DNA of 64,000 nucleotides from Candidatus Thorarchaeota archaeon (GCA_016933575.1 JAFGAR010000040.1:1-64000); one strand, 5' to 3'; shown: positions 35,803 through 57,386, numbered from the stretch's first letter. Notes: a model not told the origin generated them from the letters alone. Numbers and translations are program-made.

Positions 35803-36588
35803 TTATTCGATGATAACTACGGCATCCACGAATAACTCGTAATCTTCATCTTCATCTAGATTCTTAATCAGTACTCTCTCAACTTCAAACTCACCACGAA
35901 CTTCCAAGAGTCTTGATTGATACAAGACCTTTACACTTGAGCTTGCCAGATTCTCTGCGAGTTCGGGACTGATTACAAGAGTATCGTCCGGTGTAAGAAG
36001 CACAACACGATCTGTAACTTCTGTCAGATTAATTGCGGTTTTGACTGATTCATCACCTGAATAGAGTATCAGTGTTCTCTGATCCTTGAAATCCTTGAGA
36101 TTTTCCACACTAAGATATACACCTTTATCGAGGAATTCGTCCTTTCCAACGAGACATTCGACTTCCTCTTGCACTTTCACGTTTTCCTCTGAAACTTCTT
36201 CGCCCCGACCTTTCTTGTAGGTTTTGATTGCTTCATGAAGTGCATCAGCAGCAAGATTCGAACAATGCATCTTGATAGGTGGTAGTCCGTCAAGTTCATC
36301 AGCGACATCCTGTCGTGTAAGCTTCATCGCCTCATCAAGGGTCATTCCAATGACCATCTCAGTTGTCATACTCGTTGTGGCAATTGCAGAACCGCATCCG
36401 AAAGTTCTGAATTTTGCATCTGTAATCTTATCACCATCTACTCGAATGAATACCTCCATGATATCACCGCATGTCGGATTCCCCACTTTTCCGACAGCCA
36501 CATCATCTCCCTCAAGTGTACCTACATTCCGCGGATTTCGGAAGTGGTCAAGAACTTTCTCACTATATTTAGTTGATTTCATTATCAC
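35803..36588 (-). CDS. iscU: Fe-S scaffold IscU/NifU fused to a degenerate thioredoxin-reductase NADPH-binding domain
   Basis: YSEKVLDHF.NPRN.G, CGD, FGCGSAIA, LPPIKMHCS; about 130-aa C-terminal TrxB-like extension. Confidence 0.88.
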   Translation of the reverse strand: MIMKSTKYSEKVLDHFRNPRNVGTLEGDDVAVGKVGNPTCGDIMEVFIRVDGDKITDAKFRTFGCGSAIATTSMTTEMVIGMTLDEAMKLTRQDVADELDGLPPIKMHCSNLAADALHEAIKTYKKGRGEEVSEENVKVQEEVECLVGKDEFLDKGVYLSVENLKDFKDQRTLILYSGDESVKTAINLTEVTDRVVLLTPDDTLVISPELAENLASSSVKVLYQSRLLEVRGEFEVERVLIKNLDEDEDYELFVDAVVIIE

Positions 36589-37757
36589 TACACCTTCTTT
36601 GATTTGTAAATCGGGGACAAGTTTCGAAGACGTGTCACAATCTCTGGTACAGCCTCCAAGACAGTATCTATGTCCTCATCGGTATTGAATCGCCCAGTTG
36701 TAATTTGCAGAGAACCATGTGCTTCCTCATGAAGTAGACCCGTAGCAATGAGGGTATGCGATGGCTCTAGCGTCTTTGATGTACATGCAGATCCTGTGGA
36801 AATCGCAATTCCTTTGTCTTTAAAGGATAAGAGTATTGATTCACCTTCAATACCATCGAATCTGACATGTGTGTTACTCGGGAGTCGTTCAGTAGGATGT
36901 CCATTGAGATAGCTATCAGGTACTTCTTCCAGAATGTGTTTTATCATCCTGTTTCGGTACCCAGTGAATCGTTTAATCTCTCCAAGCATTTCTTGCTGCA
37001 TAATTTCCGCAGCCACCTTCATTCCAACTATTCCCGGAACATCTTCACTTCCAGACCGTAATCCTCTCTCTTGGCCTCCACCAATAATAAGGGGATTGAC
37101 TCTGTACTTCTTCCTCATGTAGAAGACGCCAACACCTTTTGGACCGTATATATCATTTGATGATAGTGCCATTAGATGTACACCATCTCTCTTGACATCG
37201 ATAGGCATCAGACCTTCTGCTGCGACTGCGTCTGAGTGAAAAGCAATATCTCTCTCTTCTGCAAGCTTTCCAATCTCTCTAATTGGTTGGATTGTACCAA
37301 TCTCATTGCTAGCATAACCCACTGAGATGAGAATGGTCTTGTCAGTGATTCTCTGTTCCAATTTTCTCAGACTCACACGACCATATTGATCCACTGGAAT
37401 CCTAGAAACCTCAAACCCTAGTCTTTCGAGATGCTTTGCAATGTTATGAATCGAGATGTGTTCAACCTCTGAAATGATGATATGATTCCCTTTGTTCTTG
37501 TTCCTCATGGCATACCCGACTATACCCATGTTGATTGCTTCAGTCGCACCTGATGTGAAGAAAATCTCGTCTTCATCTGCGTTTATGAATTCGGCAATAA
37601 CTTTTCTACTCTCTTCTAGAGCTTCGGTCCCCTCATCGCCAATAGAGTGTAAAGCTGATGGATTCCCATATTTTTCTCGAAAGAAAGGCATCATTCCATC
37701 TATGACTCGTTGGTCCACTGGTTTTGCACTTTGATAATCAAGATAGACCTGTTTCAT
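36588..37757 (-). CDS. iscS: Cysteine desulfurase IscS/NifS family
   Basis: YGNPS, FTSGATE, NEIGTIQ, GGGQERGLRSG, STGSACTS; PLP-lysine motif reads SSNDIYGPKG. Confidence 0.88.
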   Translation of the reverse strand: MKQVYLDYQSAKPVDQRVIDGMMPFFREKYGNPSALHSIGDEGTEALEESRKVIAEFINADEDEIFFTSGATEAINMGIVGYAMRNKNKGNHIIISEVEHISIHNIAKHLERLGFEVSRIPVDQYGRVSLRKLEQRITDKTILISVGYASNEIGTIQPIREIGKLAEERDIAFHSDAVAAEGLMPIDVKRDGVHLMALSSNDIYGPKGVGVFYMRKKYRVNPLIIGGGQERGLRSGSEDVPGIVGMKVAAEIMQQEMLGEIKRFTGYRNRMIKHILEEVPDSYLNGHPTERLPSNTHVRFDGIEGESILLSFKDKGIAISTGSACTSKTLEPSHTLIATGLLHEEAHGSLQITTGRFNTDEDIDTVLEAVPEIVTRLRNLSPIYKSKKV

Positions 37758-40502: not shown

Positions 40503-41315
40503 CTATAAAACTAGATTCTCATCCATAGCGCCAGTCCGGTATCCCCGAAGATCAAGTGTAACATAGGTGAAACCTACCTTTCTTGCAATCTGCTCTATTT
40601 GATTCAATTTTGTGATATCAAACATAAGATTCAATTCGTCTTCACCCACTTCAATACGAACAAGGTTTCCATGATATCTCGCTCGGACACATCTGACACC
40701 AAAAATATCAACAACTGCTTGTTCTACAGTGTCTACCATTCTCAACCGATCTAGGTCTATCTTAGTTCCGTAAGGAAATCTAGTTGCGAGACAAGCCATT
40801 GATGGTTTATCTGCAACAGATAGACCTCTCTCCCGTGCATATTCTCTTATTTCCTCTTTAGTAATCGCCGCATTAAGAAATGGTGATTGAACTCCTGACT
40901 CCTCAAGTGCTTTTAATCCCGGTCGATACCCCTCTGTTTCACTTGAGGTGGTTCCTTCAACAACGATGTCTAAACCCATACTCCTCGCAGTTTCTATCCA
41001 CATGCTGGCAAGTATCTGCTTACACGAATAGCATCTGTCTGCCCTATTTGCAGCTAGTCCTTCATATGATAACCAGTCTAAATCCTTCATTATAAGGTCT
41101 AGTCCAAGTCTCTCAGCAATTGATATAGCACTGGCTACTTCTCTCTCTGGAACAGTAGCACTTGTAATTGTCAATAGAGTAGTCCTAGCAGCAGTTTCAC
41201 TCACAACACTTGCGAGAACTGTACTGTCGACTCCTCCACTAAATGCGACTAAAACATTCTTTCCAGATAGTTTCTCTCTAATTGCGTCGAATTTATTCCT
41301 TGTCCGATCTTTCAT
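40503..41315 (-). CDS. larE: Nickel-pincer cofactor sulfur transferase LarE
   Basis: PP-loop AFSGGVDS, RCYSCK, RPG, CLATRFPYG, TLDLRGYRTG. Confidence 0.92.
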   Translation of the reverse strand: MKDRTRNKFDAIREKLSGKNVLVAFSGGVDSTVLASVVSETAARTTLLTITSATVPEREVASAISIAERLGLDLIMKDLDWLSYEGLAANRADRCYSCKQILASMWIETARSMGLDIVVEGTTSSETEGYRPGLKALEESGVQSPFLNAAITKEEIREYARERGLSVADKPSMACLATRFPYGTKIDLDRLRMVDTVEQAVVDIFGVRCVRARYHGNLVRIEVGEDELNLMFDITKLNQIEQIARKVGFTYVTLDLRGYRTGAMDENLVL

Positions 41316-41366: not shown

Positions 41367-43208
41367 TTAGCTTGACATATAGGGATCCTCATCGATGTCA
41401 ATGTCTGCATATCCTGCATCTCTAAGAAGATTTTCAATTGGTTCCGCTCCTGTGATCCAAGAGATTTTCCATGTGTTATCTTCCTGCAGTCGTAATTCCA
41501 CATCCGGCAGGTCTCCAAGTAAATTATGGTCCATCTCAATAGCATCTTGATAGGCACCAACGAGTGGGAGAATAAAATAAGAACTTGGAATATTTTCTAA
41601 CACTCCAATTGGTATTCCCTCTCCCATCTTTCCTCCCGGCATTGTAAGGGGTCTATTATCCTCGGAGAACCATATTTTTTCCGTATTTTGCATATAGAAG
41701 TTTGAGATTTCACCATCAGAATCACAAGTGATATCGACCAGTCTTACCGTTGTCTGAGGATGTTTCTGCAAATCTCTTGTTGGGATGACAGGGAAATGTT
41801 GCTGAACTAGTACATAATCTGCAATGCTGTTGAATACACTAAAGTTCCCAATAACAATGTGCTCAGGATACCAGAAACTTCGGGCCAGTCGATCAGAATG
41901 ATATGAATCAAGTTTCATCTCTCTCAATCGTGATCTGACCGTTCTCTCAAGATTACCAATCACCATCTCTTTCTCGAAGATAAAACCAAGCCCTGCAAGT
42001 GTCATACCACCAAAGTACTCATGGAAGTCGTTCCAGATATCAACCATATGATCCAAGGAAGTGGCTTTATCGATCCTGTCCAAATACTCTCGTTCTTTTT
42101 CTAGGGTACTCTCGGTTTCATATCTCCCGCTTCCTGTCGGAAATACTGATCTGACTTCAAGTGCTTGAACCACGATGAGTGCAGCAAGTGCTGTAACTCC
42201 TCGACCCGACTCAATCATGATGTTCGGCTCTGGTTGTCTATTGTGGTCTTCCTTCAACTGCTCCTTGATACCACTGACAATATTCCTTGCATATTGAAGC
42301 ATCAAATCGGGTGGATATGCACTCTTGTAGTCTATGGCGAGACCTCCGCCAAAATCAATAGCATCAAGTCTAGACAGTCCCATTTCCCGTAGTTCAGAAT
42401 ATATCTTTGTCATGAATCTACCAAATCTGGTAAAGGCCTCAATATTCGTTATTTGAGATCCAGCATGTCCTAGAATTGTCCGAACAGAACCAGCGAATCC
42501 AGTCTGTTTAAGCAAATCAACTACATTGTACAGGTCATGGATGCTTAATCCAAATTTAGAATCACGGCCTGTTGAATGTGACCAATGGCCTTCAACACTG
42601 AGGTATGGTTTGATTCGAAGAACAAGGTTCGTATTCTCGGCTTTGAAATACTTCGTTACTAATTGAGCTTCATGTATTGACTCGATAGAAATAGCTATGT
42701 CATAACCATCATCAAGACATTCTTGAATCAGTCTAAGATATTCAGGATCTTTAGCACCATTACAGATGATATGTCGATGCTTCTCATGCTTTGTGACTGC
42801 CTTGATAAGTTGTAACTCTGCCTTCGTGCCTGCCTCAAGACCATATTCAAAGTCCGACCTAAGAACTGCAGTCACGAAGTCACTTCTTTGATTGACTTTG
42901 ACTGGATAGATACCAATGAATTCACCAGAGTAGGCCAATTCTTTAAAGGCCAAATCAAAGGTGGTTCGTATTTTTTTTATCTGATAGGTAATTAGTTGAG
43001 GGATTCGTAAAGTGAAACTAGAAGTGTAACCTACTTGATTTCCATTCATGGATTTGACCGTATCAATAACATCTTGCAACGTGATTCTTTGATCACCAAG
43101 TTTTATGTATAGGTCTCCATTATCTGTTATATCTAAGAAATGTAGGTCATTTCTATCAATACCAAATACGGTCTTTGATTTATCAACTGACCAAGGGTGC
43201 TCTATCAT
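41367..43208 (-). CDS. speA: Biosynthetic PLP-dependent (fold-type III) arginine decarboxylase
   Basis: YPVKVNQ, GLEAGTKAEL, CNGAKD, SKFGL, DFGGGL, ESGR, DITCDSDG, GAYQ. Confidence 0.9.
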   Translation of the reverse strand: MIEHPWSVDKSKTVFGIDRNDLHFLDITDNGDLYIKLGDQRITLQDVIDTVKSMNGNQVGYTSSFTLRIPQLITYQIKKIRTTFDLAFKELAYSGEFIGIYPVKVNQRSDFVTAVLRSDFEYGLEAGTKAELQLIKAVTKHEKHRHIICNGAKDPEYLRLIQECLDDGYDIAISIESIHEAQLVTKYFKAENTNLVLRIKPYLSVEGHWSHSTGRDSKFGLSIHDLYNVVDLLKQTGFAGSVRTILGHAGSQITNIEAFTRFGRFMTKIYSELREMGLSRLDAIDFGGGLAIDYKSAYPPDLMLQYARNIVSGIKEQLKEDHNRQPEPNIMIESGRGVTALAALIVVQALEVRSVFPTGSGRYETESTLEKEREYLDRIDKATSLDHMVDIWNDFHEYFGGMTLAGLGFIFEKEMVIGNLERTVRSRLREMKLDSYHSDRLARSFWYPEHIVIGNFSVFNSIADYVLVQQHFPVIPTRDLQKHPQTTVRLVDITCDSDGEISNFYMQNTEKIWFSEDNRPLTMPGGKMGEGIPIGVLENIPSSYFILPLVGAYQDAIEMDHNLLGDLPDVELRLQEDNTWKISWITGAEPIENLLRDAGYADIDIDEDPYMSS

Positions 43209-43240
43209 TGTTGTTACTCCTGCAGATTGAGGAGAGGATA

Positions 43241-44695
43241 CTAGACATCCTCATCCTCTTTTATCGAATCTAACATTCCTTGGAATGCTCGAGCTAATTC
43301 ACCAATCTCATCGTCTTTTGAGATATATGATTGGTCAACTTGTAGGTCTTGAGTATCTAAGGGTTGTTCCCTGATTCTTGCTGCAGCATTTCTGGTAGCT
43401 AAATCCATAAGATATTGTAATGGCCGAGTGATTGTGTTAGCAATTGATACTGCGACGATTCCTGCTACAATAATTCCTCCAATCGTTGCAAAGAGGATGA
43501 ATGTTGCAGCTTGAGCATTTGTGTCTGCAATTCTTTGCTCGAGTGGTGGAATTGCTTCTAGAACTTCATCTAGAGGAACTGATATGATGCAGATGTAGTC
43601 TCCTTTTCCTACTGGTGTGTAAACCAGAATTCGCTCAGAACCATCTCTAGTGTATCTGAGAGTTCCTGATGTACCTGGTATTGTTATTGTATCAATCTGC
43701 GCTTGGGTCAATGCAACACTGCTGTCCGAATTGTCTTCAACATCGATTAGATCGGGTAACCCCGAGATGTAGGCATTATCCGGCACTTCAGGATGAGCGA
43801 CTACTCCTCCATTTGCATCAAGTAGGAACGCATAGCCTGTTTCAAGAACACTAACATCGATTACCTTCTCACGAATGTCCTCTATAGTGATGTCACCTGA
43901 GATGACAGCACGTCTCTGACCATTCCAGGACACAGCTTTTCCAATGGATATCAGTAAGACATTGTCGAACTCGTCATAATAAGGCTCAACAAAGACAGTT
44001 TCTCCATTGCCTGCCCAGATATCAAGATACCAGTCTTCGCCTCGTGGATTATAGGGATCTGATCCTCTATCTGCATCAGTACCCGCAAATATACTGCCAG
44101 GATAATTGATGAAGAGACCATCATCTGCAAAGGCTATGTATAACCAGCGAAATTCCAACTGATCATGGATTGCTCTGAAGATGAAGTCCATATTCGATAC
44201 ACGACCCAATTTGTCTGCATTCGTTGTTTCGTATGTTAGATAGTTTGTTGAATCAGTACCCGCAGTATACCAACTACTGTAGGTCCATGATACATTGAGA
44301 CCATAGTTAGCATCATACACATTATCTGCAGGGTCTGGTGCTACTGAATCATTCTCGAACAAGTAGTCATAGTAGACTTCTCTATTTGCATAAGTCGAGC
44401 TTGGATCAAAAAGAGCTTCCAGTTCCTTTGCTGCTGCTTCTATCATACCCTGTGCGCTTGTAAGTTTCTGATTGATGACTTGGGCAGTTTTCTGAGCTGT
44501 TAGATCCATGTTCGTTTGAATCTGAGTTTCTAATGCTAGAGAACTCTCGTCTCTTGTAAAGGTTCCAATGATATCAACAAAGGTTAATGATATGATTCCA
44601 GTTGCTGAGAGCGATACAAACGATATCACCAAGAAGGTGAGAATGACGTTTGTTCGAAATTTTCCCTTTTTCTTTGTTTGAGTTGTTTGTGCCAT
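43241..44695 (-). CDS. Two-TM dCache-HAMP membrane sensor without an output domain
   Basis: TM1; dCache (YNPRGEDWY..EPYYD..SGDI, GYAFLLD.NGGVVAHP); TM2; HAMP (ITRPL..DEIGELARAF) ending at the C-terminus. Confidence 0.85.
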   Translation of the reverse strand: MAQTTQTKKKGKFRTNVILTFLVISFVSLSATGIISLTFVDIIGTFTRDESSLALETQIQTNMDLTAQKTAQVINQKLTSAQGMIEAAAKELEALFDPSSTYANREVYYDYLFENDSVAPDPADNVYDANYGLNVSWTYSSWYTAGTDSTNYLTYETTNADKLGRVSNMDFIFRAIHDQLEFRWLYIAFADDGLFINYPGSIFAGTDADRGSDPYNPRGEDWYLDIWAGNGETVFVEPYYDEFDNVLLISIGKAVSWNGQRRAVISGDITIEDIREKVIDVSVLETGYAFLLDANGGVVAHPEVPDNAYISGLPDLIDVEDNSDSSVALTQAQIDTITIPGTSGTLRYTRDGSERILVYTPVGKGDYICIISVPLDEVLEAIPPLEQRIADTNAQAATFILFATIGGIIVAGIVAVSIANTITRPLQYLMDLATRNAAARIREQPLDTQDLQVDQSYISKDDEIGELARAFQGMLDSIKEDEDV

Positions 44696-44711
44696 GTTCT
44701 CCTTCACCTCC

Positions 44712-47567
44712 CTAGTAATCTACAGTTGTTCCTCCCACTTCTAGTTGTGCCATTAGAACACCTATCCTATCAAAGGCTTTCTCGATGTCCATCCTCACAT
44801 CAATACTGTCCACGACTGAGAGATATTGACCTTGGGGGATATTCTCACAGATAGACTCAAGGAGTTCTTCAGTTGTCATTTGTTTTCCAGTCTTCTTGGA
44901 GCGGACTCGTTTTTCAACCGCTGCTTTCAGCTCCTGTCCCACTCCAATGACTATGAGATTCACATCAAGATGATTATCCCGAATGAATCCTTCAATGGTT
45001 AGTGGTCGGTTTCTCATCAGACGGTCTTTCTCCGTGAGAATACCCTTCAGAACATCTAGCGAGTATGTATCCGAACTATTGTCTTGACCATCCGTAAGAG
45101 CAATGACCCATCTGTGTTCACTTGACTCTATTTTATTGAGTTCTTCAAGTGCTCTACCAAGTGCATCGTAGAAGGCTGTTGCATAATTTGGATACTTTAA
45201 TGCACTAAGCGCTTTGAAGATAGGACTGTCTTCTTCATCATATTCTCCTTTTAATGTAAGGGGTAGAATTTCACGATACGATGAATTGAATATGATTATT
45301 GAAACAGAGTCCTGTGGATTGACTTGACTACGGATGATTTCCATAGCTCCATTGACGGCCGCCTTGATTCTCTGTTGTGCTTGCATACTTCCTGAATAGT
45401 CAATTACCAAAGTCACGCTCTTCTTGTAAAGAATCGAGCGTCTGAGTTTCTCAGCTTTTCTTCGCACATCATGACTTGGTTTATTCAACTGGTCGAGAAC
45501 ATCTGCAAGTTTTTGCATAGCAAAGACAACAAGCCACATCTCATCTGTTGATTCCGCAAAAGAGATAGCCTGGTTATAAGCATCTTCTGCTTTTCGCCAA
45601 TGTCCTTGGACTTGGTATAGTTGACCTTCATGATACTTGATGTAAGCCAAGCTTCTCTCATAACCAATAGATTTGGCAGTCTTCTTTGCTTCATCAAAAC
45701 GTGACTGTGCTTGACTATATCTGCCATCTCTCATGAATACAAGACCCATGGCATCATATCGTCTCGCAAGACCATAGGAATTCTTCAAAGTGAGGTCGAT
45801 AGCTTGGGCATCTTCAAGAAGTTTCATCGATTTCTCAACATTGCCTCTATCCATCTCAACGAGTGCCATATTATGATAGATAGAAGATATCCTCATCATT
45901 GCATCTTTCTCACTTCCACCTTCTTCCTTTGTCTTCTCCAATAATCTATTAGCAATGTCAAGCGATTGTTCATAATAGTCCATGGCATTTCCAGGGTCGC
46001 CTCGTTGTCTGAACACGTTGCCAATATTCAGTAGCATTGTTTGTTCACCGACATCAATCATGAGTCTTCGACTTATCTCGAGAAGATTCTGATAGTTAGC
46101 AAGAGCTCTTCTAAGGTCTCCACGGATAAATGCCTCATTTCCAAATCGCATGGCCTCTTGGAAACTTAGCAATGCATCGACCGTTGTTCCAACCTCTTCA
46201 TACATCGCGCCTGCAGTTGTCACACCTCTTGTGAAATCTTGACGTGACATCTTGTTTACTAGTCGAGTCATCTCAGATATTGGTTCAACAATTGCACGCC
46301 CTCTTCGTCTTGATACACTGAACACTACAGCTGATACTCCGGCAAGGATACCTCCAAGTACTGCAGTAAGAATTAGAGTTCTTGTAGCTACAAGATTGAG
46401 GATATTCGTTGCAGGTCCGATGACATCTGAGTCTGGAACAACAACTACCAGAATATAGTCTGTGCCTTCTATTTGAGCAAAAGAGAGATGCCAAGTACTG
46501 CTCTGTTTCTGATAGGTCAACAGTCCTGCTTCATCTACTAGGACATGGCTTGTCAAAAGACTATGGAATGCAGTAGCTTCCGCACTACCAGATGATCCAA
46601 ACTCAAGGGTTTCAATCGATGCAACTTCTTCATCGAGAGCCTGATCTTTATGTGCCACTACGTTGCCAGCTGTATCAAGCATGAAGGCATAGCCATTTGA
46701 TAACACATTGAGGTTTAGTACTCTATCAAGAATTGTAGCCATGGTCACATCTGCAGAAACAACACCGATGAGGGATCCATTGTCAAATCTTACAGGTCTT
46801 CCCATAGATATGACCAATCCCACAGGATCGACATAGGGAGCTGTGAGAATCACCTGGTCATTGCTAGGAGCAATTGAGGCCACATTGGTATACCACTCCT
46901 GAGCATTTGCATCATAATCAAGCCCTGGCCCATCATAATCTAGAAAATAACTAAGGTCGTCAAAAGGATAGTTCTTGAAAAGGTGTTGATCTGAAACCGC
47001 TAAATCGTATCCCATGTACAACCACTTGTAATCATTGTTCATCTCATGAAGTGCTTTGAAAATGTTAATCATATTTGAAGAATAATCCAAGGCAACTTGT
47101 GTACTGGATGAAAAATCGTGAGGATCATTATTGTTCCATTCTGATCTTGGAATGAAATAGCAGTCAGCTGCAAATGAGATGTATTCTGATTCGTATGCTT
47201 CGACTATTGCATCATCGGTTTCAAATGTTCCAAGCAAGTCTGACCAATGCGGTTCTTCATTAATGTCCCAATAATAGCTATATTGCGGGGAGGCAGAAAT
47301 TCTACCATTAAACAAATCCTCACAATAAGCCTCCATCATAAACACACCATCGACATAGCTTTGCCATCGCTCTCCGATGAAGAGAGCTGTGTCATTGGAT
47401 AGCCTCTGGAGGTTTGCTAATTCCTCAGATTTGAGAGCCTCCGCTGCATCTCCTGCATTAGCATTTGCAACGGTGAAAATCTCACCCATTGATAATGCGG
47501 ATATCGCTAGCATTGGAACCAAAGCAACGACGATGAATGTGACTACTATTCTCTTTGAGATGTCCAT
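44712..47567 (-). CDS. Two-TM dCache-HAMP-TPR-vWA membrane receptor
   Basis: TM1; dCache (YDANAQEWY..APYVD..SADV); TM2; HAMP (IVEPI..EEVG); about 5-6 TPRs (NIGNVFRQRGD..AMDYYEQSL); vWA with MIDAS DYSGS, TAFYDA, LTDG. Confidence 0.85.
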   Translation of the reverse strand: MDISKRIVVTFIVVALVPMLAISALSMGEIFTVANANAGDAAEALKSEELANLQRLSNDTALFIGERWQSYVDGVFMMEAYCEDLFNGRISASPQYSYYWDINEEPHWSDLLGTFETDDAIVEAYESEYISFAADCYFIPRSEWNNNDPHDFSSSTQVALDYSSNMINIFKALHEMNNDYKWLYMGYDLAVSDQHLFKNYPFDDLSYFLDYDGPGLDYDANAQEWYTNVASIAPSNDQVILTAPYVDPVGLVISMGRPVRFDNGSLIGVVSADVTMATILDRVLNLNVLSNGYAFMLDTAGNVVAHKDQALDEEVASIETLEFGSSGSAEATAFHSLLTSHVLVDEAGLLTYQKQSSTWHLSFAQIEGTDYILVVVVPDSDVIGPATNILNLVATRTLILTAVLGGILAGVSAVVFSVSRRRGRAIVEPISEMTRLVNKMSRQDFTRGVTTAGAMYEEVGTTVDALLSFQEAMRFGNEAFIRGDLRRALANYQNLLEISRRLMIDVGEQTMLLNIGNVFRQRGDPGNAMDYYEQSLDIANRLLEKTKEEGGSEKDAMMRISSIYHNMALVEMDRGNVEKSMKLLEDAQAIDLTLKNSYGLARRYDAMGLVFMRDGRYSQAQSRFDEAKKTAKSIGYERSLAYIKYHEGQLYQVQGHWRKAEDAYNQAISFAESTDEMWLVVFAMQKLADVLDQLNKPSHDVRRKAEKLRRSILYKKSVTLVIDYSGSMQAQQRIKAAVNGAMEIIRSQVNPQDSVSIIIFNSSYREILPLTLKGEYDEEDSPIFKALSALKYPNYATAFYDALGRALEELNKIESSEHRWVIALTDGQDNSSDTYSLDVLKGILTEKDRLMRNRPLTIEGFIRDNHLDVNLIVIGVGQELKAAVEKRVRSKKTGKQMTTEELLESICENIPQGQYLSVVDSIDVRMDIEKAFDRIGVLMAQLEVGGTTVDY

Positions 47568-47634
47568 CTTCTCTTTCTCCCTTTGATTCTATGAATTATC
47601 ATTGTGTTAACATCAATTTCCAAACCTATCTTCC

Positions 47635-49080
47635 CTACCTTGCTTGTGCGTTTAATTCCTCTATCAATTTCTCTGTAAAATCCCGTAGGTCCATTTTTTC
47701 ATCCAGGATGAATAGGTCTCCTTCAAGTGTCCCTTTGACTGCACCTTCACCCAGAAGTATGATGAGAGTCCTACGAAGTATTCGTCGATCAACTCCAGTT
47801 TCTCTCTCCATCCGAGAAACATCAACACTGTCAGTTCCTTGCAATAGACTATAAAGTGTAGAACGTATCTTCGAAATATCTTGCTCCTGAAGTTTCCTTA
47901 TTCCTTTGAGTTTCTTGGTTTCTGTCCGTACAAATGTACTTCCATCAATATGTCCATCAATATCATTACACTGTATCATTGCCTGTAGACTACGGCGTAG
48001 ATTATAGGCAGCAGGTCTTGGAAGCGTTTTTCTGAGGATTCGATCAAGCTCCTTCAACTTGATTATATTATGCTTAGACGTGATAGAATCGATACTCTCT
48101 TGGATATATTCCTCAATGACATACTCCTCTATCATCTGGAGAGCTGCACCGCATGCACTGCATTTTGCGGCCTCTGGCGAGGTAGGAGCCCCACAATTCC
48201 CACATTTTATCGCTCTTCTATAGAGTATCTCCTTTGTCGAACCTATTTGTTGAAGAATCACCTGTTCAGTCCTGCTTGCTTTTCCTGTCTGTCCGATTTC
48301 CCAAAAACTAAGTTTCCTATCCTTTGTACTGACCACGAGATATGCAATATCGGAGATGTCATCTGGTACTCCTGTCGCCATTGCTCTTGGGATGTCGCCA
48401 ATATCTATTCGAGTTACTTCATTTCCATCAATATCCCAGACTCTAAGTGTCGGTGATAGGTCTCCGGTAACGAAGAGAGTTCTCTTTTCGAAAGATAGAA
48501 CTGCAAACACCATGATTCTATCACCGAGCTGGAGTTCTCGTAGTTGATAACCAGCAGCTGTCAAAATCGTAATCTTTCCGGTCTTGTCTGCAATAACCGT
48601 TTCAAGCTCTGTATCGTGTGTGATATCTTCTAGCCAGACATCAGCAATTGGCTGGTCGACATTTCTTGTGAAGATTGTATCCTTATCATCATTGTAAAGA
48701 ACTACTCTATTGTTTTCCAGTGCGACCACAACTTCTGCAGCATCATCCCCATCGATGTCTCGTGCATCACAGGCAATCACATCGCTCTCAAGTCGGATGT
48801 TCCAAACTGTACTTCCTCTATGGTCAACAACAAGTACTTTTTTGCCAACCCCGCCAACAAGAGAATCTGTTCCCTCTCCTTCAACATCTGCAACAGCGAT
48901 ACATCTGACCTTACTCGACCATTTTCTGGTGCTTGTGAGTGTACCCTTCGCATCGAAAACTCTTAGTCTATCTCCATAATCAAGGGAGAATACCTGTGTA
49001 CTTGAATCTCTTCGTTGTCTTACATAGACCGAATATACATTTGCAGCAATAGGTACACTTGCAACAGCGCGAATCTTCAA
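47635..49080 (-). CDS. Cytoplasmic FG-GAP/BBS2-like beta-propeller plus double zinc ribbon plus two PCI-like winged helices
   Basis: DVEGEG, DIDGDDAAE and DITHDTELE loops; CGNCG..CSACG; LQAMI..IDGHID and LIILLGEGAVKGTLE winged-helix ends; no signal peptide. Confidence 0.65.
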   Translation of the reverse strand: MKIRAVASVPIAANVYSVYVRQRRDSSTQVFSLDYGDRLRVFDAKGTLTSTRKWSSKVRCIAVADVEGEGTDSLVGGVGKKVLVVDHRGSTVWNIRLESDVIACDARDIDGDDAAEVVVALENNRVVLYNDDKDTIFTRNVDQPIADVWLEDITHDTELETVIADKTGKITILTAAGYQLRELQLGDRIMVFAVLSFEKRTLFVTGDLSPTLRVWDIDGNEVTRIDIGDIPRAMATGVPDDISDIAYLVVSTKDRKLSFWEIGQTGKASRTEQVILQQIGSTKEILYRRAIKCGNCGAPTSPEAAKCSACGAALQMIEEYVIEEYIQESIDSITSKHNIIKLKELDRILRKTLPRPAAYNLRRSLQAMIQCNDIDGHIDGSTFVRTETKKLKGIRKLQEQDISKIRSTLYSLLQGTDSVDVSRMERETGVDRRILRRTLIILLGEGAVKGTLEGDLFILDEKMDLRDFTEKLIEELNAQAR

Positions 49081-49147: not shown

Positions 49148-50227
49148 ATGATGACAAACTCCGGTCAATGTAGAATTGGCTTCCTCTGGAGTCCACTCCT
49201 AGAAACATTTGATTTCGGACGAAAGCATCCTATTCGAGTAGGCCGATTCAAACTACTACGAGACTTTGTAGATGAAGTTGGATTTCTAGATCTTCCGAAT
49301 GTTGAAGTCATTACCCCTGAACTTCTATCTGAAGATCTTTTAAAAACCATTCACTCGGAGGAATATATCGCAAAAGTCCAACAGATTTCTGAAACAGGAA
49401 TTGGTGATATTGATATAGATACTCCGGGATTCAGAAATATTTACTTCAATTCTCGAATTGTATCTGGAGCTTCAGTTACTGGGATTAAATCAGTGCAGTC
49501 TGGACTGGTAGATCACTTTGTTTCCCCAACTGGTGGCTTCCATCACGCCAAGTTTGGCGCTGGTGGCGGCTTTTGTATTTTCAATGATATTGCTGCTTGT
49601 GTTTATGAACTGAAGAATCAGGGAATCAAAAGAGTGCTAATAGCCGATTTTGATGTTCACCATGGCAACGGTACACAGACCTATTTCTATAATGATCCCG
49701 AAGTAATGCAGATCTCATTTCATGAGGACCCTGAATGGATGTTTCCACATGATGGATACATTCAGGATATTGGAGAAGGCTCTGGTCGTGGATACAATAT
49801 CAATATGCCTTTTCCAATGGACTCGGGAGATGCTGTCTATCGCTATGCTTTTGATGAATTGATCCCCCCATTAGTTGACTCCTATCAACCTGAGTTTATC
49901 ATCTTTATACCTGGTTTTGATGCTCACTACAAAGATCGTCTTGCTCATCTCACTCTAACAACTGACATGATACGATACATCGCATCTACAATCCATGATT
50001 TCGCTCATGAATACAGTTCTGGAAAATTAGGTGTCGTCACTGGTGGCGGTTATCACCATGAATCTCTCTGTTGGGGTCTTGGTACGGTTATGTCTGTTCT
50101 CTCTGGCTTGGACTTTGAACCACCCCCACAGCAACCACCATTTGATGATAATGAAGAAACTTGGGAAGAAGTAAAAAATAATGTGGCTCTCGTGAAAGAC
50201 CTCATCTTTCCAATTTTCAATCTCTGA
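49148..50227 (+). CDS. Zn-dependent histone deacetylase superfamily protein (AcuC/acetylpolyamine amidohydrolase-like)
   Basis: GGFHHA, GFCIFND, DFDVHHGNGTQ, SFHE, GFDAH, GGGY. Confidence 0.92.
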   Translation: MMTNSGQCRIGFLWSPLLETFDFGRKHPIRVGRFKLLRDFVDEVGFLDLPNVEVITPELLSEDLLKTIHSEEYIAKVQQISETGIGDIDIDTPGFRNIYFNSRIVSGASVTGIKSVQSGLVDHFVSPTGGFHHAKFGAGGGFCIFNDIAACVYELKNQGIKRVLIADFDVHHGNGTQTYFYNDPEVMQISFHEDPEWMFPHDGYIQDIGEGSGRGYNINMPFPMDSGDAVYRYAFDELIPPLVDSYQPEFIIFIPGFDAHYKDRLAHLTLTTDMIRYIASTIHDFAHEYSSGKLGVVTGGGYHHESLCWGLGTVMSVLSGLDFEPPPQQPPFDDNEETWEEVKNNVALVKDLIFPIFNL

Positions 50228-50230
50228 TTG

Positions 50231-51127
50231 TTATCCAGGTCTCCAAAAATCAAGTATGTACTCATAGGTTGTTGAGAGCGTGATATAATTCGAAGGCCAA
50301 CCAAAGATACCAGCTTTATTCACGATATTCCTTCTATCCCAGATAATGGTATTTCGAAGTTCATAACCTGCATTTTGAAGAGCATTCGTTACATGGATGT
50401 GAGCAGGAATACGTTTTCCCTTCCACCAATAGTCGGTGATATTGATAACGCATCGGCCTCTTGGTTTCAATAGGGGAAGGATGCCCTTGAAGATGTCCTG
50501 AATAGCCAAAGAATATTCTTTGATATTCATAGTTCCTAAATCTGCTGGATGATCTGAATATTGTTGGACCTGCAAATAGTGCTCATCATCTCTTAGGTCT
50601 CCTCTTATGCTCTTGTTTTTTCGCTTACGATTCAGAAGATTAGCATATGGTGGTGACGTAATACAGAGACTAACTGTTTCCTCCTCGAAATAATCTCCAA
50701 TGTTCAAGGCGTCTGCACATATTGCTATCTGATTAGAGGTCTTCTTTGTTGTTTCTAACAATCTGTTGTTGCTGAGGTCAACGTACTCCTTTTTTAGATC
50801 GAAACCAACTGCATTTCTATCCAAATCCTGAGCAGCTAATAATGTCGTTCCTGAGCCAACAAACGGATCTAACACTAGCTCTCCTCTGTGAGTAAACAGG
50901 TTGATGCATTTAGATGGAAGTGCAATTGGAAAGACTGCAGGATGAATTTTCTTGTCACGTATGTCTCTCTTTTCATAGTAGAACTCCCAGACAGCAATCT
51001 GGTGTTGAAGCCACTCTTTTGCAGATAGGCAATTAATATGGTTCGATGGGCACCCACATGTCCGCTCATGTCGGATTCTGAGAGGTTTTGATATCTCCAA
51101 AGGTATCCCGTACCTACATAATCTCAC
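50231..51127 (-). CDS. Orphan amino-DNA methyltransferase (N4C/N6A), permuted motif order
   Basis: HPAVFP, then DPFVGSGTT, then TSPPY. Confidence 0.88.
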   Translation of the reverse strand: MRLCRYGIPLEISKPLRIRHERTCGCPSNHINCLSAKEWLQHQIAVWEFYYEKRDIRDKKIHPAVFPIALPSKCINLFTHRGELVLDPFVGSGTTLLAAQDLDRNAVGFDLKKEYVDLSNNRLLETTKKTSNQIAICADALNIGDYFEEETVSLCITSPPYANLLNRKRKNKSIRGDLRDDEHYLQVQQYSDHPADLGTMNIKEYSLAIQDIFKGILPLLKPRGRCVINITDYWWKGKRIPAHIHVTNALQNAGYELRNTIIWDRRNIVNKAGIFGWPSNYITLSTTYEYILDFWRPG

Positions 51128-51803
51128 TCATCAATTTTCGGGCAAGATCAATAGCACTCATTGCATCTCTTCCAAACGCATCAGCGCCTGTATAATCCAC
51201 AACATTCTGATCGATGTCTCCCCCACCTATCATTACCTTTACTTTGTCACGCAATCCCGCCTCTTGAAGGGCTTCAACTGTCCTCTTCATTACATCATGA
51301 GTGGTTGTAATCAATCCACTTAATGCAAGGACTCTCGCTTGAGTTTCCTCTATTTTTTGAACGAATCTTTCAGGTGCTACATCTTCACCAAGGTCATACA
51401 CTTCGAATCCATTGGCTTTCAGGAAAGCTACTACTAGATTCTTCCCAATATAATGAACATCTCCCTGGACAGTCCCAATTACTACTTTCCCACTCTCATT
51501 CTCTCGCTGTGTTGATAGTAAGACCGGTTCTAATTTTTGCATTGCTCGCTTGAAGACATCTGCTGACATGACGAGTTCAACTAGAAAATATTCATTCTTT
51601 GAGAATCGTTCACCAACAATGTCCATACCTTTCTTCAAGGCGTCAAGAATTTGGAATGGGTCTATTCTCTCAGATATATAGGTGTCAACTAGGTTGAGGA
51701 TTTTGGATTCATCGATCTCTGCCATTGCTTCCATTAACTCTGTCATTGTGCATTGACCATCCAGTTCATTTCTAAGCGTTCTAACTCTTATATTTGGCAT
51801 CAT
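51114..51803 (-). CDS. Corrinoid (B12-binding) methyltransferase cognate protein
   Basis: Cap domain GMDIVGERF..EYFL.EL; GDVHYIGKN (DxHxxG); LSGL; IGGG. Confidence 0.93.
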   Translation of the reverse strand: MMPNIRVRTLRNELDGQCTMTELMEAMAEIDESKILNLVDTYISERIDPFQILDALKKGMDIVGERFSKNEYFLVELVMSADVFKRAMQKLEPVLLSTQRENESGKVVIGTVQGDVHYIGKNLVVAFLKANGFEVYDLGEDVAPERFVQKIEETQARVLALSGLITTTHDVMKRTVEALQEAGLRDKVKVMIGGGDIDQNVVDYTGADAFGRDAMSAIDLARKLMSEIM

Positions 51804-51813
51804 ATATCTTTCA

Positions 51814-53406
51814 TCATGGTAGCTTGATTGATTCGATGAAGGTCTTTTGGAAGTCGCTATGGGATGCCAGTTCTATATAGTGAACACTCTCAATTATGTG
51901 GTCCGCATGTCTTCGACTTTCTGATGAAAGAAGAAGTCCTTTAGCTCCTTCTCCGGCAGCATTACCTACTGGAACTATCTTTGACACATCTATTTGAGGT
52001 AGAAGTCCAATCGCAGTGGCACTTATTGGATTGATGTAATTGCCAAACGCTCCTGCTAACAAAACACGGGCTATATCTCCTCGGGAGATTTCCAAGCTCT
52101 TGAGAAGCAACATAGTTCCTGCTTGAATTGCCGCTTTTGCCAGTTGTATTTGCCTGACATCTCTCTGTGTGAAAATGATTCGTTTCTCTTCTTTCGCCTC
52201 TTCTGAATCAACAACAACGTAGGAAAGTCCATGATCAGCATCTTCGATAACTCTCTTCGATACCTTCTGCATCCTCCCATTCTGGTCTAGGATTCGAATA
52301 CGTCTTAACTCTGCTACAATATCTATGATGGCTGAGCCACAGATTCCCTGTGGATTGGCATTCCCAATGACACTGATCTCTGGTATGTCGTCGATTCCAT
52401 GTATTTGGAAATGCTCTATCGCTCCATTCTGACCCCGCATACCTTGAAAGATAGTAGCACCTTCAAAGGCTGGTCCTGCGGCAGCGGAACAACAAAATAA
52501 CTGACCATCTGTAGCGAGAACAATCTCACCATTTGTACCAATATCTATTCCGAGTACCACATCCTTTACAGAATCAAGTTGCTGAGATAGAATGAAAGCG
52601 ACTGTATCTCCTCCAACAAAACCTGCTATATTCGGTGCTACGTAGACCTCGCAATTCGGATTAATATTTAGATTGATATCTACTCCTCTCATTGTTACAG
52701 CTTCTTTAACTGTAGGAGTATATGGTGCAAATGCCAGTGGTCTCACCTCAGTTCCTAAAAACAGGTGATTCATAGCAGTATTCCCAACTACTGATATTCT
52801 GGTTAACGCTGATGGGTCTAAATCTGCAGTTTCATAAAGCACCATTACCAACCGGTTAATCTCTTTGAGAATGGTATTCCGAAGAAGATGGATTCCGTCT
52901 TCCTGTCTTATCGCATATGCGATTCTTGACATAACATCTTCTCCAAAAGCAGTCTGAGGATTTAGAGATGATATTTGTGCTATCTGAACTCCATTTACTA
53001 AATCCATCAGGTATGCAGCAATTGTTGTTGTCCCGAGGTCAAAGGCAATACCATAATGGCCTTCTTGATATTTGTCAATATCCCACTTCCTCGATACTCC
53101 CTCGGATAGTATCTTAACATCTTCAAGTTGATATGGCACGAGAACACGAATCGGTTCTTCCACAACATGTTGACACGCTAGTCTGAATCCCTGCTGAAGT
53201 TCTTCAGATTGGATATGTTGAGCATCTCTCTCTGTTGGCATACTAGGCGGTTGAACAATGATTTTGCATTTGCCGCAAGAACCGATTCCTCCACAATCAG
53301 CTAAGATATGGAGTCCCACTTCTCGTGCAGCGTCCAGGATGGTCTTTGAAGAATCCACAGAGATCTTCAAACCAGAAGGTTCGAATATCACTAGATGCTT
53401 GTTCAT
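51814..53406 (-). CDS. Reductive activator of corrinoid proteins (RACo/RamA-like, 2Fe-2S plus ASKHA)
   Basis: CGGIGSCGKC..RLACQ, DLGTTT, GEDVMSRI, DIGTNGE, AAGPAFEG, GICGS, AGAFG. Confidence 0.92.
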   Translation of the reverse strand: MNKHLVIFEPSGLKISVDSSKTILDAAREVGLHILADCGGIGSCGKCKIIVQPPSMPTERDAQHIQSEELQQGFRLACQHVVEEPIRVLVPYQLEDVKILSEGVSRKWDIDKYQEGHYGIAFDLGTTTIAAYLMDLVNGVQIAQISSLNPQTAFGEDVMSRIAYAIRQEDGIHLLRNTILKEINRLVMVLYETADLDPSALTRISVVGNTAMNHLFLGTEVRPLAFAPYTPTVKEAVTMRGVDINLNINPNCEVYVAPNIAGFVGGDTVAFILSQQLDSVKDVVLGIDIGTNGEIVLATDGQLFCCSAAAGPAFEGATIFQGMRGQNGAIEHFQIHGIDDIPEISVIGNANPQGICGSAIIDIVAELRRIRILDQNGRMQKVSKRVIEDADHGLSYVVVDSEEAKEEKRIIFTQRDVRQIQLAKAAIQAGTMLLLKSLEISRGDIARVLLAGAFGNYINPISATAIGLLPQIDVSKIVPVGNAAGEGAKGLLLSSESRRHADHIIESVHYIELASHSDFQKTFIESIKLP

Positions 53407-55835: not shown

Positions 55836-55919
55836 TTATTCTTGAAAAATCGAAAAGTAATACAATATGATTTAACATATACATCATCATTGAATGTTGC
55901 ATATTGGAGTCTGGTGACT

Positions 55920-57386
55920 ATGCCAACTACTCAGAAAAATCCTAGGAAACGGGAACAGAAAGACAAGTTAACATTGTCCTTGGGTGGCATATTACCATTA
56001 GACGAGGTTTTGCTTGATGCTATTGTGAATGGTTCGCATGAGGGAATAGCTGTAATCGGAGATGACTTCAAGTTACTCTATGTAAACGATCAATGCTGCA
56101 AGGTGTTTGGGGGGACTAGGGATGAGTTAATTGGGTATGATTTTCGACAATTCATCAACGAGGATTCCCTGAAGACTGTCACACAGAGATATCTGCAGAG
56201 GCGTTCGGGAAAGCGAGTTCCAGATACTTATCCCATCCATCTGACGCGAAAGGATGGAAGTACAGTAACGGTTGAAGGTATAGTTGACATTACAACGGCT
56301 CTTGATGGCACTACTCTGACGATTGCACATGTTCTTGATATTACACCAATTCAGAGAGGTCAAGAATTACTTGAACAATCTGAAACAAGATATCAGATAC
56401 TCGTTGAAACGATGAATGATGGTCTGGCTATCGATGACCGAAAGGGGAATATAACATATGCAAACCGAGCATTCTGTCGTATGCTCAACTGCTCTGAAAC
56501 TGATATCATAGGAAAACCATGGGTGAATTTTACAACTAATATTGATGAGGAGAGTATTAAGAGGAAAATTGATGAACGCCGCACAGGCATATCAGAACGC
56601 TATGAACTGACTTGGAAAAGTTCGACTGGCGAGTTAGTACCAACAATTGTTTCTGCAACGCCGCTCTTTGATCGTTCTGGTGATTTTATCGGTACTTTTG
56701 CGATAGTGACAGAGATAACAGCACAAAAAGACGCAGAAGAAACTATTCAATTCTATCTTGACCTTCTATCTCATGATGTTACGAATCAACTGCAGGTCAT
56801 TATGACAAGTAGCGGTCTCTTAGAGGAGGAGGTGCCTCAATCATATATTGCTGATGCTCGAAATGATATACTGGAAGCTGTTGAAAGGTGCAATAGGCTT
56901 ATCACAAAGGTGAAGCGTGCAGCTCAGATTCGGCAGATCCCAATTTCGATCGTGGAACTATCGCAGATTCTTAATGAACGAATTTTAGTTCTTGAGAAGG
57001 TCTACGGTGCAAAAGTGCACCAGCAGGGGATAAAGAAGAAAGTGCTGGTCGAAGCGGATGTTCTACTTGGGGAGCTAATCTGGAACCTCCTTGAGAATGC
57101 AGCACGCCACAATCCAACAGAAAACAAAGAGATTTGGATATCTGTAGAGCCCCTAAAGGATGTAGTCCGGATTGCCATATCAGACAATGGACCTGGATTA
57201 AGTGACTCTCGAAAGACTGTACTCTTTACTGAGCGGAAGCATGGTGGTGGAGTTGGTCTTAGACTCGTGCGTCAGATGATTCGAAAGTATGGTGGTATGA
57301 TTGAAGTTACAGACAGAGTCAAGGACAATCCAAGTGAAGGCTTGAAATTCATAGTCACTCTGAGAAAAACACAGAAATCAAAATAG
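55920..57386 (+). CDS. Cytoplasmic PAS-PAS sensor histidine kinase
   Basis: Two PAS/PAC domains; H-box LLSHDVTNQL; N-box NLLENA; DNGPG; GGGVGL. Confidence 0.92.
   Translation: MPTTQKNPRKREQKDKLTLSLGGILPLDEVLLDAIVNGSHEGIAVIGDDFKLLYVNDQCCKVFGGTRDELIGYDFRQFINEDSLKTVTQRYLQRRSGKRVPDTYPIHLTRKDGSTVTVEGIVDITTALDGTTLTIAHVLDITPIQRGQELLEQSETRYQILVETMNDGLAIDDRKGNITYANRAFCRMLNCSETDIIGKPWVNFTTNIDEESIKRKIDERRTGISERYELTWKSSTGELVPTIVSATPLFDRSGDFIGTFAIVTEITAQKDAEETIQFYLDLLSHDVTNQLQVIMTSSGLLEEEVPQSYIADARNDILEAVERCNRLITKVKRAAQIRQIPISIVELSQILNERILVLEKVYGAKVHQQGIKKKVLVEADVLLGELIWNLLENAARHNPTENKEIWISVEPLKDVVRIAISDNGPGLSDSRKTVLFTERKHGGGVGLRLVRQMIRKYGGMIEVTDRVKDNPSEGLKFIVTLRKTQKSK

Follow-up and report, generated by a model that had tools for sequence, protein, structure and literature searches.

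In prokaryotes, no extracellular sensors are commoner than Cache-HAMP receptors, and to our knowledge nearly all that have been studied pass their signal to a kinase, a chemotaxis array or a second-messenger enzyme. Among the dCache receptors, TlpQ and McpU recognize polyamines, agmatine or histamine through strongly negative pockets, in which the primary amine is held by a Tyr/Asp/Asp set, and agmatine binds with a dissociation constant of 0.15–0.48 µM (PMC6234866). The amine motif dCache_1AM includes an upstream insertion with an R103–D133 pair and, within the archaea, the family is reported from a single phylum, Halobacteriota (PMC10589655). An output-less Cache_heme-HAMP (CHH) receptor signals by non-covalent binding of the helical repeats of a Ser/Thr kinase partner to its HAMP domain (bioRxiv 10.64898/2026.05.25.727664). 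Here we analyze a locus of four genes at positions 41,367–49,080 of a 64,000 nt stretch from the Asgard archaeon Candidatus Thorarchaeota archaeon (GCA_016933575.1 JAFGAR010000040.1:1-64000), the whole of which we call the window. It encodes a propeller protein (P0001), two dCache-HAMP receptors, A (P0002) and B (P0003), and a SpeA-like arginine decarboxylase (P0004).

We propose that this is an Asgard membrane sensing module that has no enzymatic output, responds to amines and is tied to speA; as a whole, we give this reading about an even chance. The module as such and its conservation are hardly in doubt. In contrast to receptors that feed an enzyme or a chemotaxis array, the deeply conserved pair found here bears nothing but docking modules on its cytoplasmic side; it has a predicted adaptor, and protists have a fused form of it.

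Results

Receptors A and B carry no enzymatic output

A hydropathy scan placed two membrane helices in each of A and B and none in P0001. In both receptors the helices flank a dCache_1 domain (PF02743), which scored 49.2 bits in A and 61.8 bits in B at a gathering cut-off of 45. The two proteins are paralogues with 26% identity over residues 6–417, i.e., the sensor and membrane part. The HAMP domain (PF00672) of B scored 28 bits (cut-off 25). For the HAMP of this copy of A there was no Pfam row, and the NCBIfam TM-HAMP model NF053592 matched residues 394–465; A orthologues compared with the same Pfam cut-off gave 32.2 bits (L043, a short form from family f9), 21.9 bits (L028) and 20.7 bits (L027). 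The A HAMP residues P429 and E458 are invariant in the orthologue alignment.

The cytoplasmic part of A further contains a TPR array and a vWA domain (Pfam VWA 37.4 bits, VWA_2 46.7 bits). Its metal-ion-dependent adhesion site (MIDAS) consists of D723, S725 and S727 (D-x-S-x-S), T797 and D826, none of which varies among 11 orthologues or among 16 sequences from nine families. Pfam and NCBIfam models found no kinase, cyclase, phosphatase or methyl-accepting chemotaxis protein (MCP) domain in A. Likewise, HisKA/HATPase, MCPsignal, GGDEF/EAL, cyclase or PP2C outputs were absent from A, from B and from the ten flanking open reading frames (ORFs) scanned. An initial annotation, made from the window's sequence, had described A as lacking an enzymatic output and as ending in a TPR array and a MIDAS-intact vWA domain, and both the Pfam domains and the invariant MIDAS agree with this. 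The same annotation lists a PAS histidine kinase about 8 kb away (55842–57386), outside the ten ORFs scanned. We found no specific similarity of the A vWA domain to alpha2delta or integrin; its sole weak PDB match was TRAP. Among anti-phage defence models (PADLOC), only generic TPR rows matched A and none matched the remaining three proteins, and we hence dropped a reading as a defence system.

B stops directly after its HAMP domain, as initially annotated, with the Pfam match ending five residues before the C-terminus. This is not the mark of a truncated pseudogene with longer orthologues, a possibility raised in the initial annotation, since the short form is kept across Asgard families. Among 61 related genomes, the B frame measures 470–520 residues nearly everywhere and has no internal stop in nearly all of them. 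In an alignment covering ten families, 16 of 17 orthologues end 5 to 25 residues from HAMP with a short charged tail. The sole long B among these families is that of f12 (585–670 residues; L027:2700-4655, also in G155 and G161), where a zinc ribbon and HEAT repeats, i.e., a docking module and not an enzyme, follow HAMP. As f12 has no propeller gene, this extension may replace the propeller protein. We also considered the acidic B tail as an EEVD-type peptide for a TPR clamp and rejected this, because the tail, though charged in every family, shows no conservation of its last residues.

The module is conserved and rearranged as a unit in Asgard archaea

A profile of receptor A matched in 187 of 400 Asgard genomes at E 1e-20 or better, and A-like and B-like matches were adjacent in 61 related genomes. 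The two genes adjoin each other in 26 of 27 genomes of the same genus; the same holds for six of the family's nine other genera and for two additional families. Nine families have a full-length A next to a B gene (f1, f5, f14, f21, f23, f12, f29, f9 and f30). The initial annotation had named synteny as a check; it extends well past this genus, with the gene order either conserved or rearranged as a unit.

The propeller gene follows this pattern. Its profile matches lie beside A/B in at least five arrangements, and outside f1 nearly every good match adjoins the receptor genes. In f1, the propeller gene is upstream and co-oriented (propeller-A-B). It is downstream and convergent in f21, and downstream and co-oriented (A-B-propeller) in f9, f30 and f29, the last including a genome that forms one contig of 6.0 Mb. 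Part of f9 has a short TM-HAMP-TPR-vWA form that lacks dCache and B, followed by a 150-residue ORF and the propeller gene, and on the metagenome contig L048 the propeller gene is divergent. The f9 set with the short form comprises four genes (L043:7302-12238, likewise in L044, L046 and L047), which encode a 240-residue ORF without a family, a TM-HAMP-TPR-vWA protein of 575 residues, a membrane ORF of 150 residues and a propeller protein of 610 residues that ends in a zinc ribbon; there is no B gene.

Two single loci are recorded here as observations in their own right. One f21 genome has a second, divergent A-B pair with no speA alongside (L035; G118:C1:1736713-1739373 and flank), and on the metagenome contig L049 a small ion-channel gene (Ion_trans/Lig_chan; 410-1048) stands directly upstream of an A-B pair.

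The propeller protein is predicted to dock on a basic helix of A

We predicted the complex of A residues 472–951 with P0001 together with three controls. The interface score (interaction prediction score from aligned errors, ipSAE), which expresses the model's own confidence and is not a measurement, was 0.70, 0.67 and 0.67 for A with P0001 and 0.00 for all three controls. In a benchmark, the mark of 0.67 was reached by 58 of 80 solved complexes versus 2 of 110 mismatched pairs, counts that are only rough because custom alignments were used. At least 70% of the contacts recur between the docking runs, and the predicted local distance difference test (pLDDT) of the partner is at least 82.

On the side of A, the predicted interface comprises only residues 692–714, a basic helix (isoelectric point, pI, 10.6) between the TPR array and the vWA domain. 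The predicted contacts on P0001 are residues 12–16, 35–37, 56–59, 100–102, 122, 144, 166–167, 190 and 208. The A helix crosses the acidic face of the propeller (pI 4.8) with contacts from all blades, including the invariant residues Y16, S56 and R59. The vWA domain and its MIDAS lie outside this interface. The prediction (0.67 versus 0.00 for the best control) hence speaks for the earlier proposal that the propeller protein is the partner of A. In contrast, the integrin-like vWA:propeller contact suggested at the same time does not appear in it, and FG-GAP_3 scored only 13.7 bits on P0001 at a cut-off of 26.9.

The contact histidine H699 of A is kept in f1, f21, f29, f9 and f30 and replaced in f5, f23, f14 and f12. 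In the latter four families the propeller profile finds at most one weak, non-adjacent match. Retention of H699 only in families with a propeller gene supports the docking site, although the lineages are few and related, so this is not conclusive. We consider docking of the propeller protein on the basic helix of A probable on the strength of the model. Because the MIDAS is intact also in families without a propeller gene, its partner cannot in general be the propeller.

A and B units occur fused in one eukaryotic protein

An exhaustive search with the cytoplasmic arm of A returned about 35 representative clusters with HAMP-TPR-vWA from about residue 400 in proteins of about 900 residues, and in addition a form of 1,613 residues. 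This fused form is represented by eight protein clusters (1,518–1,685 residues), which include EukProt gene models and one MMETSP transcript. One copy lies on a contig with genes for ARL2BP (ARL2-binding protein), FAST (FAST-kinase-like) and OST3/6. The fused proteins have four membrane helices and combine two dCache-TM-HAMP units, B-type and A-type, with TPR and vWA in a single chain. In all eight, unit 1 scored 46–84 bits with the B model versus 1–30 bits with the A model, and unit 2 scored 75–111 bits with the A model versus 36–72 bits with the B model. A quick maximum-likelihood tree placed unit 1 with B and unit 2 with A of the Thor-side families, with values of 97 and 94 in the Shimodaira-Hasegawa-like approximate likelihood-ratio test (SH-aLRT). 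The stems are very long and only a quick tree search was made, which leaves the direction of descent open.

That the two partners are fused in a single chain argues, by Rosetta-stone logic, for A and B acting as one complex. We therefore think an A:B heteromer fairly likely, and the heterodimer that the initial annotation had assumed gains indirect support from the eukaryotic chain. A more far-reaching account holds that the pair is the archaeal form of a receptor family also present in eukaryotes as a four-pass chain, i.e., an ancient mode of membrane signalling by ligand-controlled docking with the propeller as adaptor; early eukaryotes may have received it from Asgard archaea, and the dCache-plus-vWA proteins alpha2delta and CACHD1 may be distant kin. 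This account we hold to be improbable.

The sensor pockets have lost the carboxylate-binding arginine

The closest solved matches of both sensors are PctA, PctB and PctC (E 1e-8 to 1e-9). Five of the six positions of the dCache_1AA motif (Y121, R126, W128, Y129, Y144 and D173 in PctA numbering) are kept in A and B, among them the Tyr and Asp that hold the amino group of the ligand. R126 is lost: at this locus its position is occupied by Q223 in A and by Glu in B, and across all families with linked speA the residue there varies between Q, E and W in A and between E, D and Q in B. In f29, a family without speA, both proteins of the pair show the full canonical Y-D-P-R-x-R-x-W-Y motif. Loss of the arginine that binds the carboxylate, usually with an acidic residue instead, favours an amine ligand such as agmatine or a polyamine. 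From this pocket comparison we put an amine ligand at even chances.

speA is linked to the receptor genes in six families

P0004 matched the NCBIfam model for biosynthetic arginine decarboxylase, PRK05354, with 352 bits (cut-off 369) and TIGR01273 with 330.8 bits (cut-off 624), over nearly its full length. It shows the context of the lysine that binds pyridoxal phosphate (PLP) and a C-terminal Cys-Asp-Ser motif. It stays below both equivalog cut-offs and is here called a SpeA-like arginine decarboxylase. It is the only speA copy found in this 85.5%-complete genome, in which a pyruvoyl ArgDC was likewise not found; two agmatinase-family genes lie elsewhere in the same genome. Agmatine is required in archaea for tRNA-Ile agmatidine and for polyamines.

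Among the Asgard families, speA occurs only in f1, f5, f14, f21, f22, f23 and f12. Of the 16 genomes outside f1 that have both speA and A-B on one contig, 15 have them adjacent. Linkage to the module was found in six families and in two arrangements, i.e., speA after B (including f14 and f23) or divergent from A (f21 and f5). Survival of a linkage through changes of side and strand is a classical sign of a functional tie. The initial annotation had treated speA as a passenger; the comparative linkage makes it a functional associate and points to amine sensing.

Two loci with speA stand apart. In G028 (C7:13126-15456), a propeller gene remnant of 41 residues comes after speA, and neither A nor B was found in this 94%-complete genome, which looks like a recent loss of the module. 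In f23, a second gene with the Orn/DAP/Arg-decarboxylase fold follows speA (L037:14635-16074; best match lysA with 203 bits, below cut-off).

The propeller protein ends in a variable tail

The AlphaFold2 model of P0001 (pLDDT 84.5, predicted template modelling score 0.78) shows, in this order, a six-blade propeller (residues 1–265), a helix, a four-cysteine zinc ribbon, two winged helices and a terminal helix. Pfam matched beta-propeller and zinc-ribbon families. In Foldseek searches the propeller resembled generic WD40, NHL, BBS9, BBS1 and IFT propellers, and weak Pfam rows for BBS2, BBS7 and ITFG2 recur in the Asgard partners. BBS2-type propeller families also mark clusters from Chloroflexota and Woesearchaeota, so there is no eukaryotic signature in such rows. 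With dCache, HAMP, TPR and vWA being ordinary prokaryotic modules as well, "eukaryote-style signalling", as the initial annotation had put it, is an overstatement.

The zinc ribbon cysteines C293, C296, C307 and C310 are invariant among P0001 orthologues, and by hhalign the ribbon matches those of the f9 partner and of the long f12 B. For the winged-helix tail, Foldseek gave UFL1/DDRGK1 and ESCRT-II as best matches with low template modelling scores, and VIA-align gave Stn1 (Z 8.4) followed by UFL1, PCID2, cullin WHB, ORC/Cdc6 and CSN7 (Z 6.5–7.1). PCI winged helices (CSN7, eIF3 and PCID2) reached Z 5.7–7.1, tied with those of Stn1, cullin, ORC and kleisin. PCI (PF01399) gave no Pfam row for P0001 at E 0.1 or better. 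The tail is a tandem winged helix; the PCI domain annotated initially has no specific support, PCI winged helices being some among many equal structural matches. A language-model search with the C-terminal part of P0001 returned only sub-threshold, unnamed clusters (0.76–0.77).

By hhalign, P0001 and the partners of the other families have only the propeller and the zinc ribbon in common, which makes the P0001 tail look like a variable output. A search by hhalign for its winged helices, in the partners of other families and in the separate helix-turn-helix gene next to the f21 partner, recovered the zinc ribbon as the sole shared part.

Layout of the locus and neighbouring genes

The four ORFs are co-oriented on the minus strand (Table 1), with intergenic gaps of 67, 4 and 32 nt; the middle gap is 16 nt if B starts at its first ATG. 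Coordinates and gaps are those of the initial annotation. Read by eye, GGAG-like motifs stand a few bases 5′ of the start codons of A and speA, and a TATA-like box stands about 40 nt upstream of the first gene, that of the propeller protein. A single operon would fit these signals, and we state it as an inference only.

Table 1. Genes and domains of the analyzed locus, with positions in the window.
Feature	Position	Strand	Remarks
Cytoplasmic propeller/zinc-ribbon/tandem winged-helix protein P0001	47635..49080	-	481 aa, TTG start; orthologues align from residue 1
Beta-propeller of P0001, residues 1-265	48286..49080	-	24 strands, six blades by count
Four-cysteine zinc ribbon of P0001, residues 290-315	48136..48213	-	Zn_Ribbon_1 E 2e-4
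Two winged-helix domains of P0001, residues 319-390 and 399-462	47695..48126	-	C-terminal model pLDDT 78
Receptor A P0002	44712..47567	-	951 aa; TM, dCache_1, TM, HAMP, TPR array, basic helix, vWA
Extracellular dCache_1 sensor of A, residues 31-395	46383..47477	-	PF02743, 49.2 bits
HAMP of A, residues 421-472	46152..46307	-	Invariant P429 and E458; Pfam HAMP matches in orthologues
TPR array of A, residues 473-690	45498..46151	-	TPR_12 E 3.9e-18 and further TPR families
Basic helix ahead of vWA in A, residues 691-716	45420..45497	-	Predicted propeller docking site
Cytoplasmic vWA of A with intact MIDAS, residues 717-951	44715..45419	-	VWA_2 E 5.5e-12, VWA E 3.9e-9
Receptor B P0003	43241..44707	-	488 aa; TM, dCache_1, TM, HAMP, short acidic tail, no output domain
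SpeA-like PLP-dependent arginine decarboxylase P0004	41367..43208	-	613 aa; Orn/Arg decarboxylase PLP domain PF02784 E 1.2e-24
Divergent HDAC/acetylpolyamine-amidohydrolase superfamily gene	49148..50227	+	PF00850 E 1.2e-73; system membership uncertain

The HDAC-like gene adjoins the propeller gene in seven f1 loci, and does so neither in L026 nor in other families. NCBIfam models gave no name for it. We considered it as part of a polyamine theme and, with synteny restricted to f1 and no NCBIfam name, left this uncertain.

Further genes of the window were noted. The gene after speA (40503–41315, minus strand) encodes a LarE-type ATP-dependent sacrificial sulfur transferase (TIGR00268, 252 bits, cut-off 150), which follows speA also in three further f1 loci (L022-L024) and not in the remaining loci. 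Just past the HDAC-like gene (50231–53406, minus strand) lie a DNA-methylase-like gene and genes for a B12-binding corrinoid protein and a RACo-type reductive activator; the latter two are syntenic in several f1 loci. At 35803–37757 (minus strand), an IscU/NifU-like gene of 261 residues, of which NifU_N covers only residues 7–127, adjoins an IscS-like class-V aminotransferase gene.

Discussion

In the mechanism that we favour, the paralogous dCache-HAMP receptors A and B would work as one hetero-complex and sense an external amine. Only A bears a cytoplasmic arm, made of the TPR repeats, the basic helix and the MIDAS-intact vWA domain, and its basic helix would recruit the acidic face of the soluble propeller protein. 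Ligand binding might then change the hold of this arm on the propeller adaptor and on a further, putative MIDAS partner, and the variable tail of the propeller protein, i.e., the zinc ribbon and two winged helices in Thorarchaeota, would pass the signal on. A transcriptional output via the winged-helix tail would be no more than a candidate. In Thor-side lineages the module may tune agmatine and polyamine synthesis to external supply; judged from gene linkage, control of speA by the module has slightly less than an even chance. Of the initial interpretation as a heterodimeric receptor signalling through protein contacts, the conserved B, the synteny, the propeller partner and, indirectly, the A:B pairing stand. 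The integrin-like contact is not supported, nor is PCI in particular, and the eukaryote-style label goes too far.

Several points weigh against the proposal of an amine-responsive module tied to speA. The ligand assignment is based on one pocket position, and the change at R126 was possibly one ancestral event, so that few independent observations underlie the correlation with speA. In f9, f30 and f29 the module occurs without speA, and G070, G031 and G028 have speA but no module; the tie between the two is hence not universal, nor is it obligatory. In f1, the linkage might reflect plain co-transcription of speA with the receptors, which would show co-expression and not control. The docking score reflects the confidence of a model. 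Furthermore, the winged-helix tail is confined to f1, and its first winged helix is only mildly basic (pI 8.2).

We weighed the proposal against other explanations. If the module were a general, integrin-like receptor, in which the A vWA domain packs on an FG-GAP propeller via its MIDAS and speA is an unrelated passenger, then the invariance of the MIDAS in all families, the linkage of the propeller gene to A in many of them and the speA-free modules of f9, f29 and f30 would find a simple explanation. However, the predicted interface leaves out the vWA domain, FG-GAP stays far under its cut-off, families without a propeller keep an intact MIDAS, and adjacency to speA persists through a change of side and strand; we therefore consider such a receptor unlikely. 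The sensors could also detect an amino acid, e.g., the SpeA substrate arginine or another basic amino acid, so that the module would report substrate supply and not product. The five retained motif positions, the closeness to PctA, PctB and PctC and the full motif of the f29 pair speak for this, but the arginine that would hold the carboxylate is lost in A and B of every speA-linked family, usually in favour of an acidic residue. An amino acid ligand thus has, in our estimate, a low probability.

Equally, the complex could be a membrane scaffold or assembly platform, for instance of a cell-surface or cytoskeletal structure, and no signal transducer; vWA, TPR and propeller would be structural glue, and the speA neighbourhood a matter of operon history. 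All cytoplasmic parts are indeed interaction modules, no downstream effector was identified, and f12 B has gained HEAT repeats, i.e., another scaffold module. Against this, dCache with HAMP is a signalling cassette wherever studied, selection acts on the residues of the ligand pocket, which change in concert in A and B, and linkage to speA recurs in two arrangements. We rate a pure scaffold as rather improbable. Chance juxtaposition, or B as a decaying gene copy, can practically be dismissed: nothing was found in its favour, B is intact and of the same length across ten families, and the genes either keep their order or move as one block.

In the papers that could be searched, we found neither this architecture nor this system described. 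New are, moreover, the B-plus-A make-up of the eukaryotic form, the position of the predicted docking site with its co-variation with the presence of the partner gene, and the contrast in pocket motifs between speA-linked and speA-free families. If the proposed mechanism is correct, transmembrane signalling gains a further, kinase-free mode, the regulation of agmatine and polyamine synthesis in Asgard archaea becomes approachable for the first time, and these archaea share a concrete, testable gene family with eukaryotes. Experiments can directly target the predicted docking helix and the changed residue in the pocket.

Several known systems share parts of this architecture. As in integrins, with their alpha-propeller and beta-I (vWA) domain, a propeller and a MIDAS vWA domain occur within one system; here, however, the predicted contact is not propeller-to-vWA, FG-GAP is not matched, and the parts are cytoplasmic and not extracellular. 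Like A, the eukaryotic proteins alpha2delta and CACHD1 combine dCache_1 and vWA in one polypeptide, with weak Cache matches (E 2.5e-6 to 7.7e-5). In contrast to alpha2delta, all parts of which are extracellular, the vWA domain of A follows HAMP in the cytoplasm and has no specific alpha2delta similarity.

The sensors are closer to those of chemoreceptors. PctA, PctB and PctC of Pseudomonas aeruginosa have the same TM, dCache, TM, HAMP topology, and A and B keep their residues Y121, W128, Y129, Y144 and D173. However, R126 is replaced in A and B, which have neither an MCP domain nor a chemotaxis (Che) pathway, and the output is TPR-vWA in A and none in B. The negatively charged amine pocket of McpU and TlpQ fits the acidic replacement and the speA link found here; both are MCPs, neither is among the sequence matches of A and B at E 0.01 or better, and the likeness of the pockets is one by description. 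The nearest published precedent for B is the CHH receptor, a Cache-TM-HAMP protein that likewise has no output of its own. B differs from it in lacking the heme motif CXXCH and a kinase; its partner would instead be a paralogous TPR-vWA receptor, and the system is archaeal.

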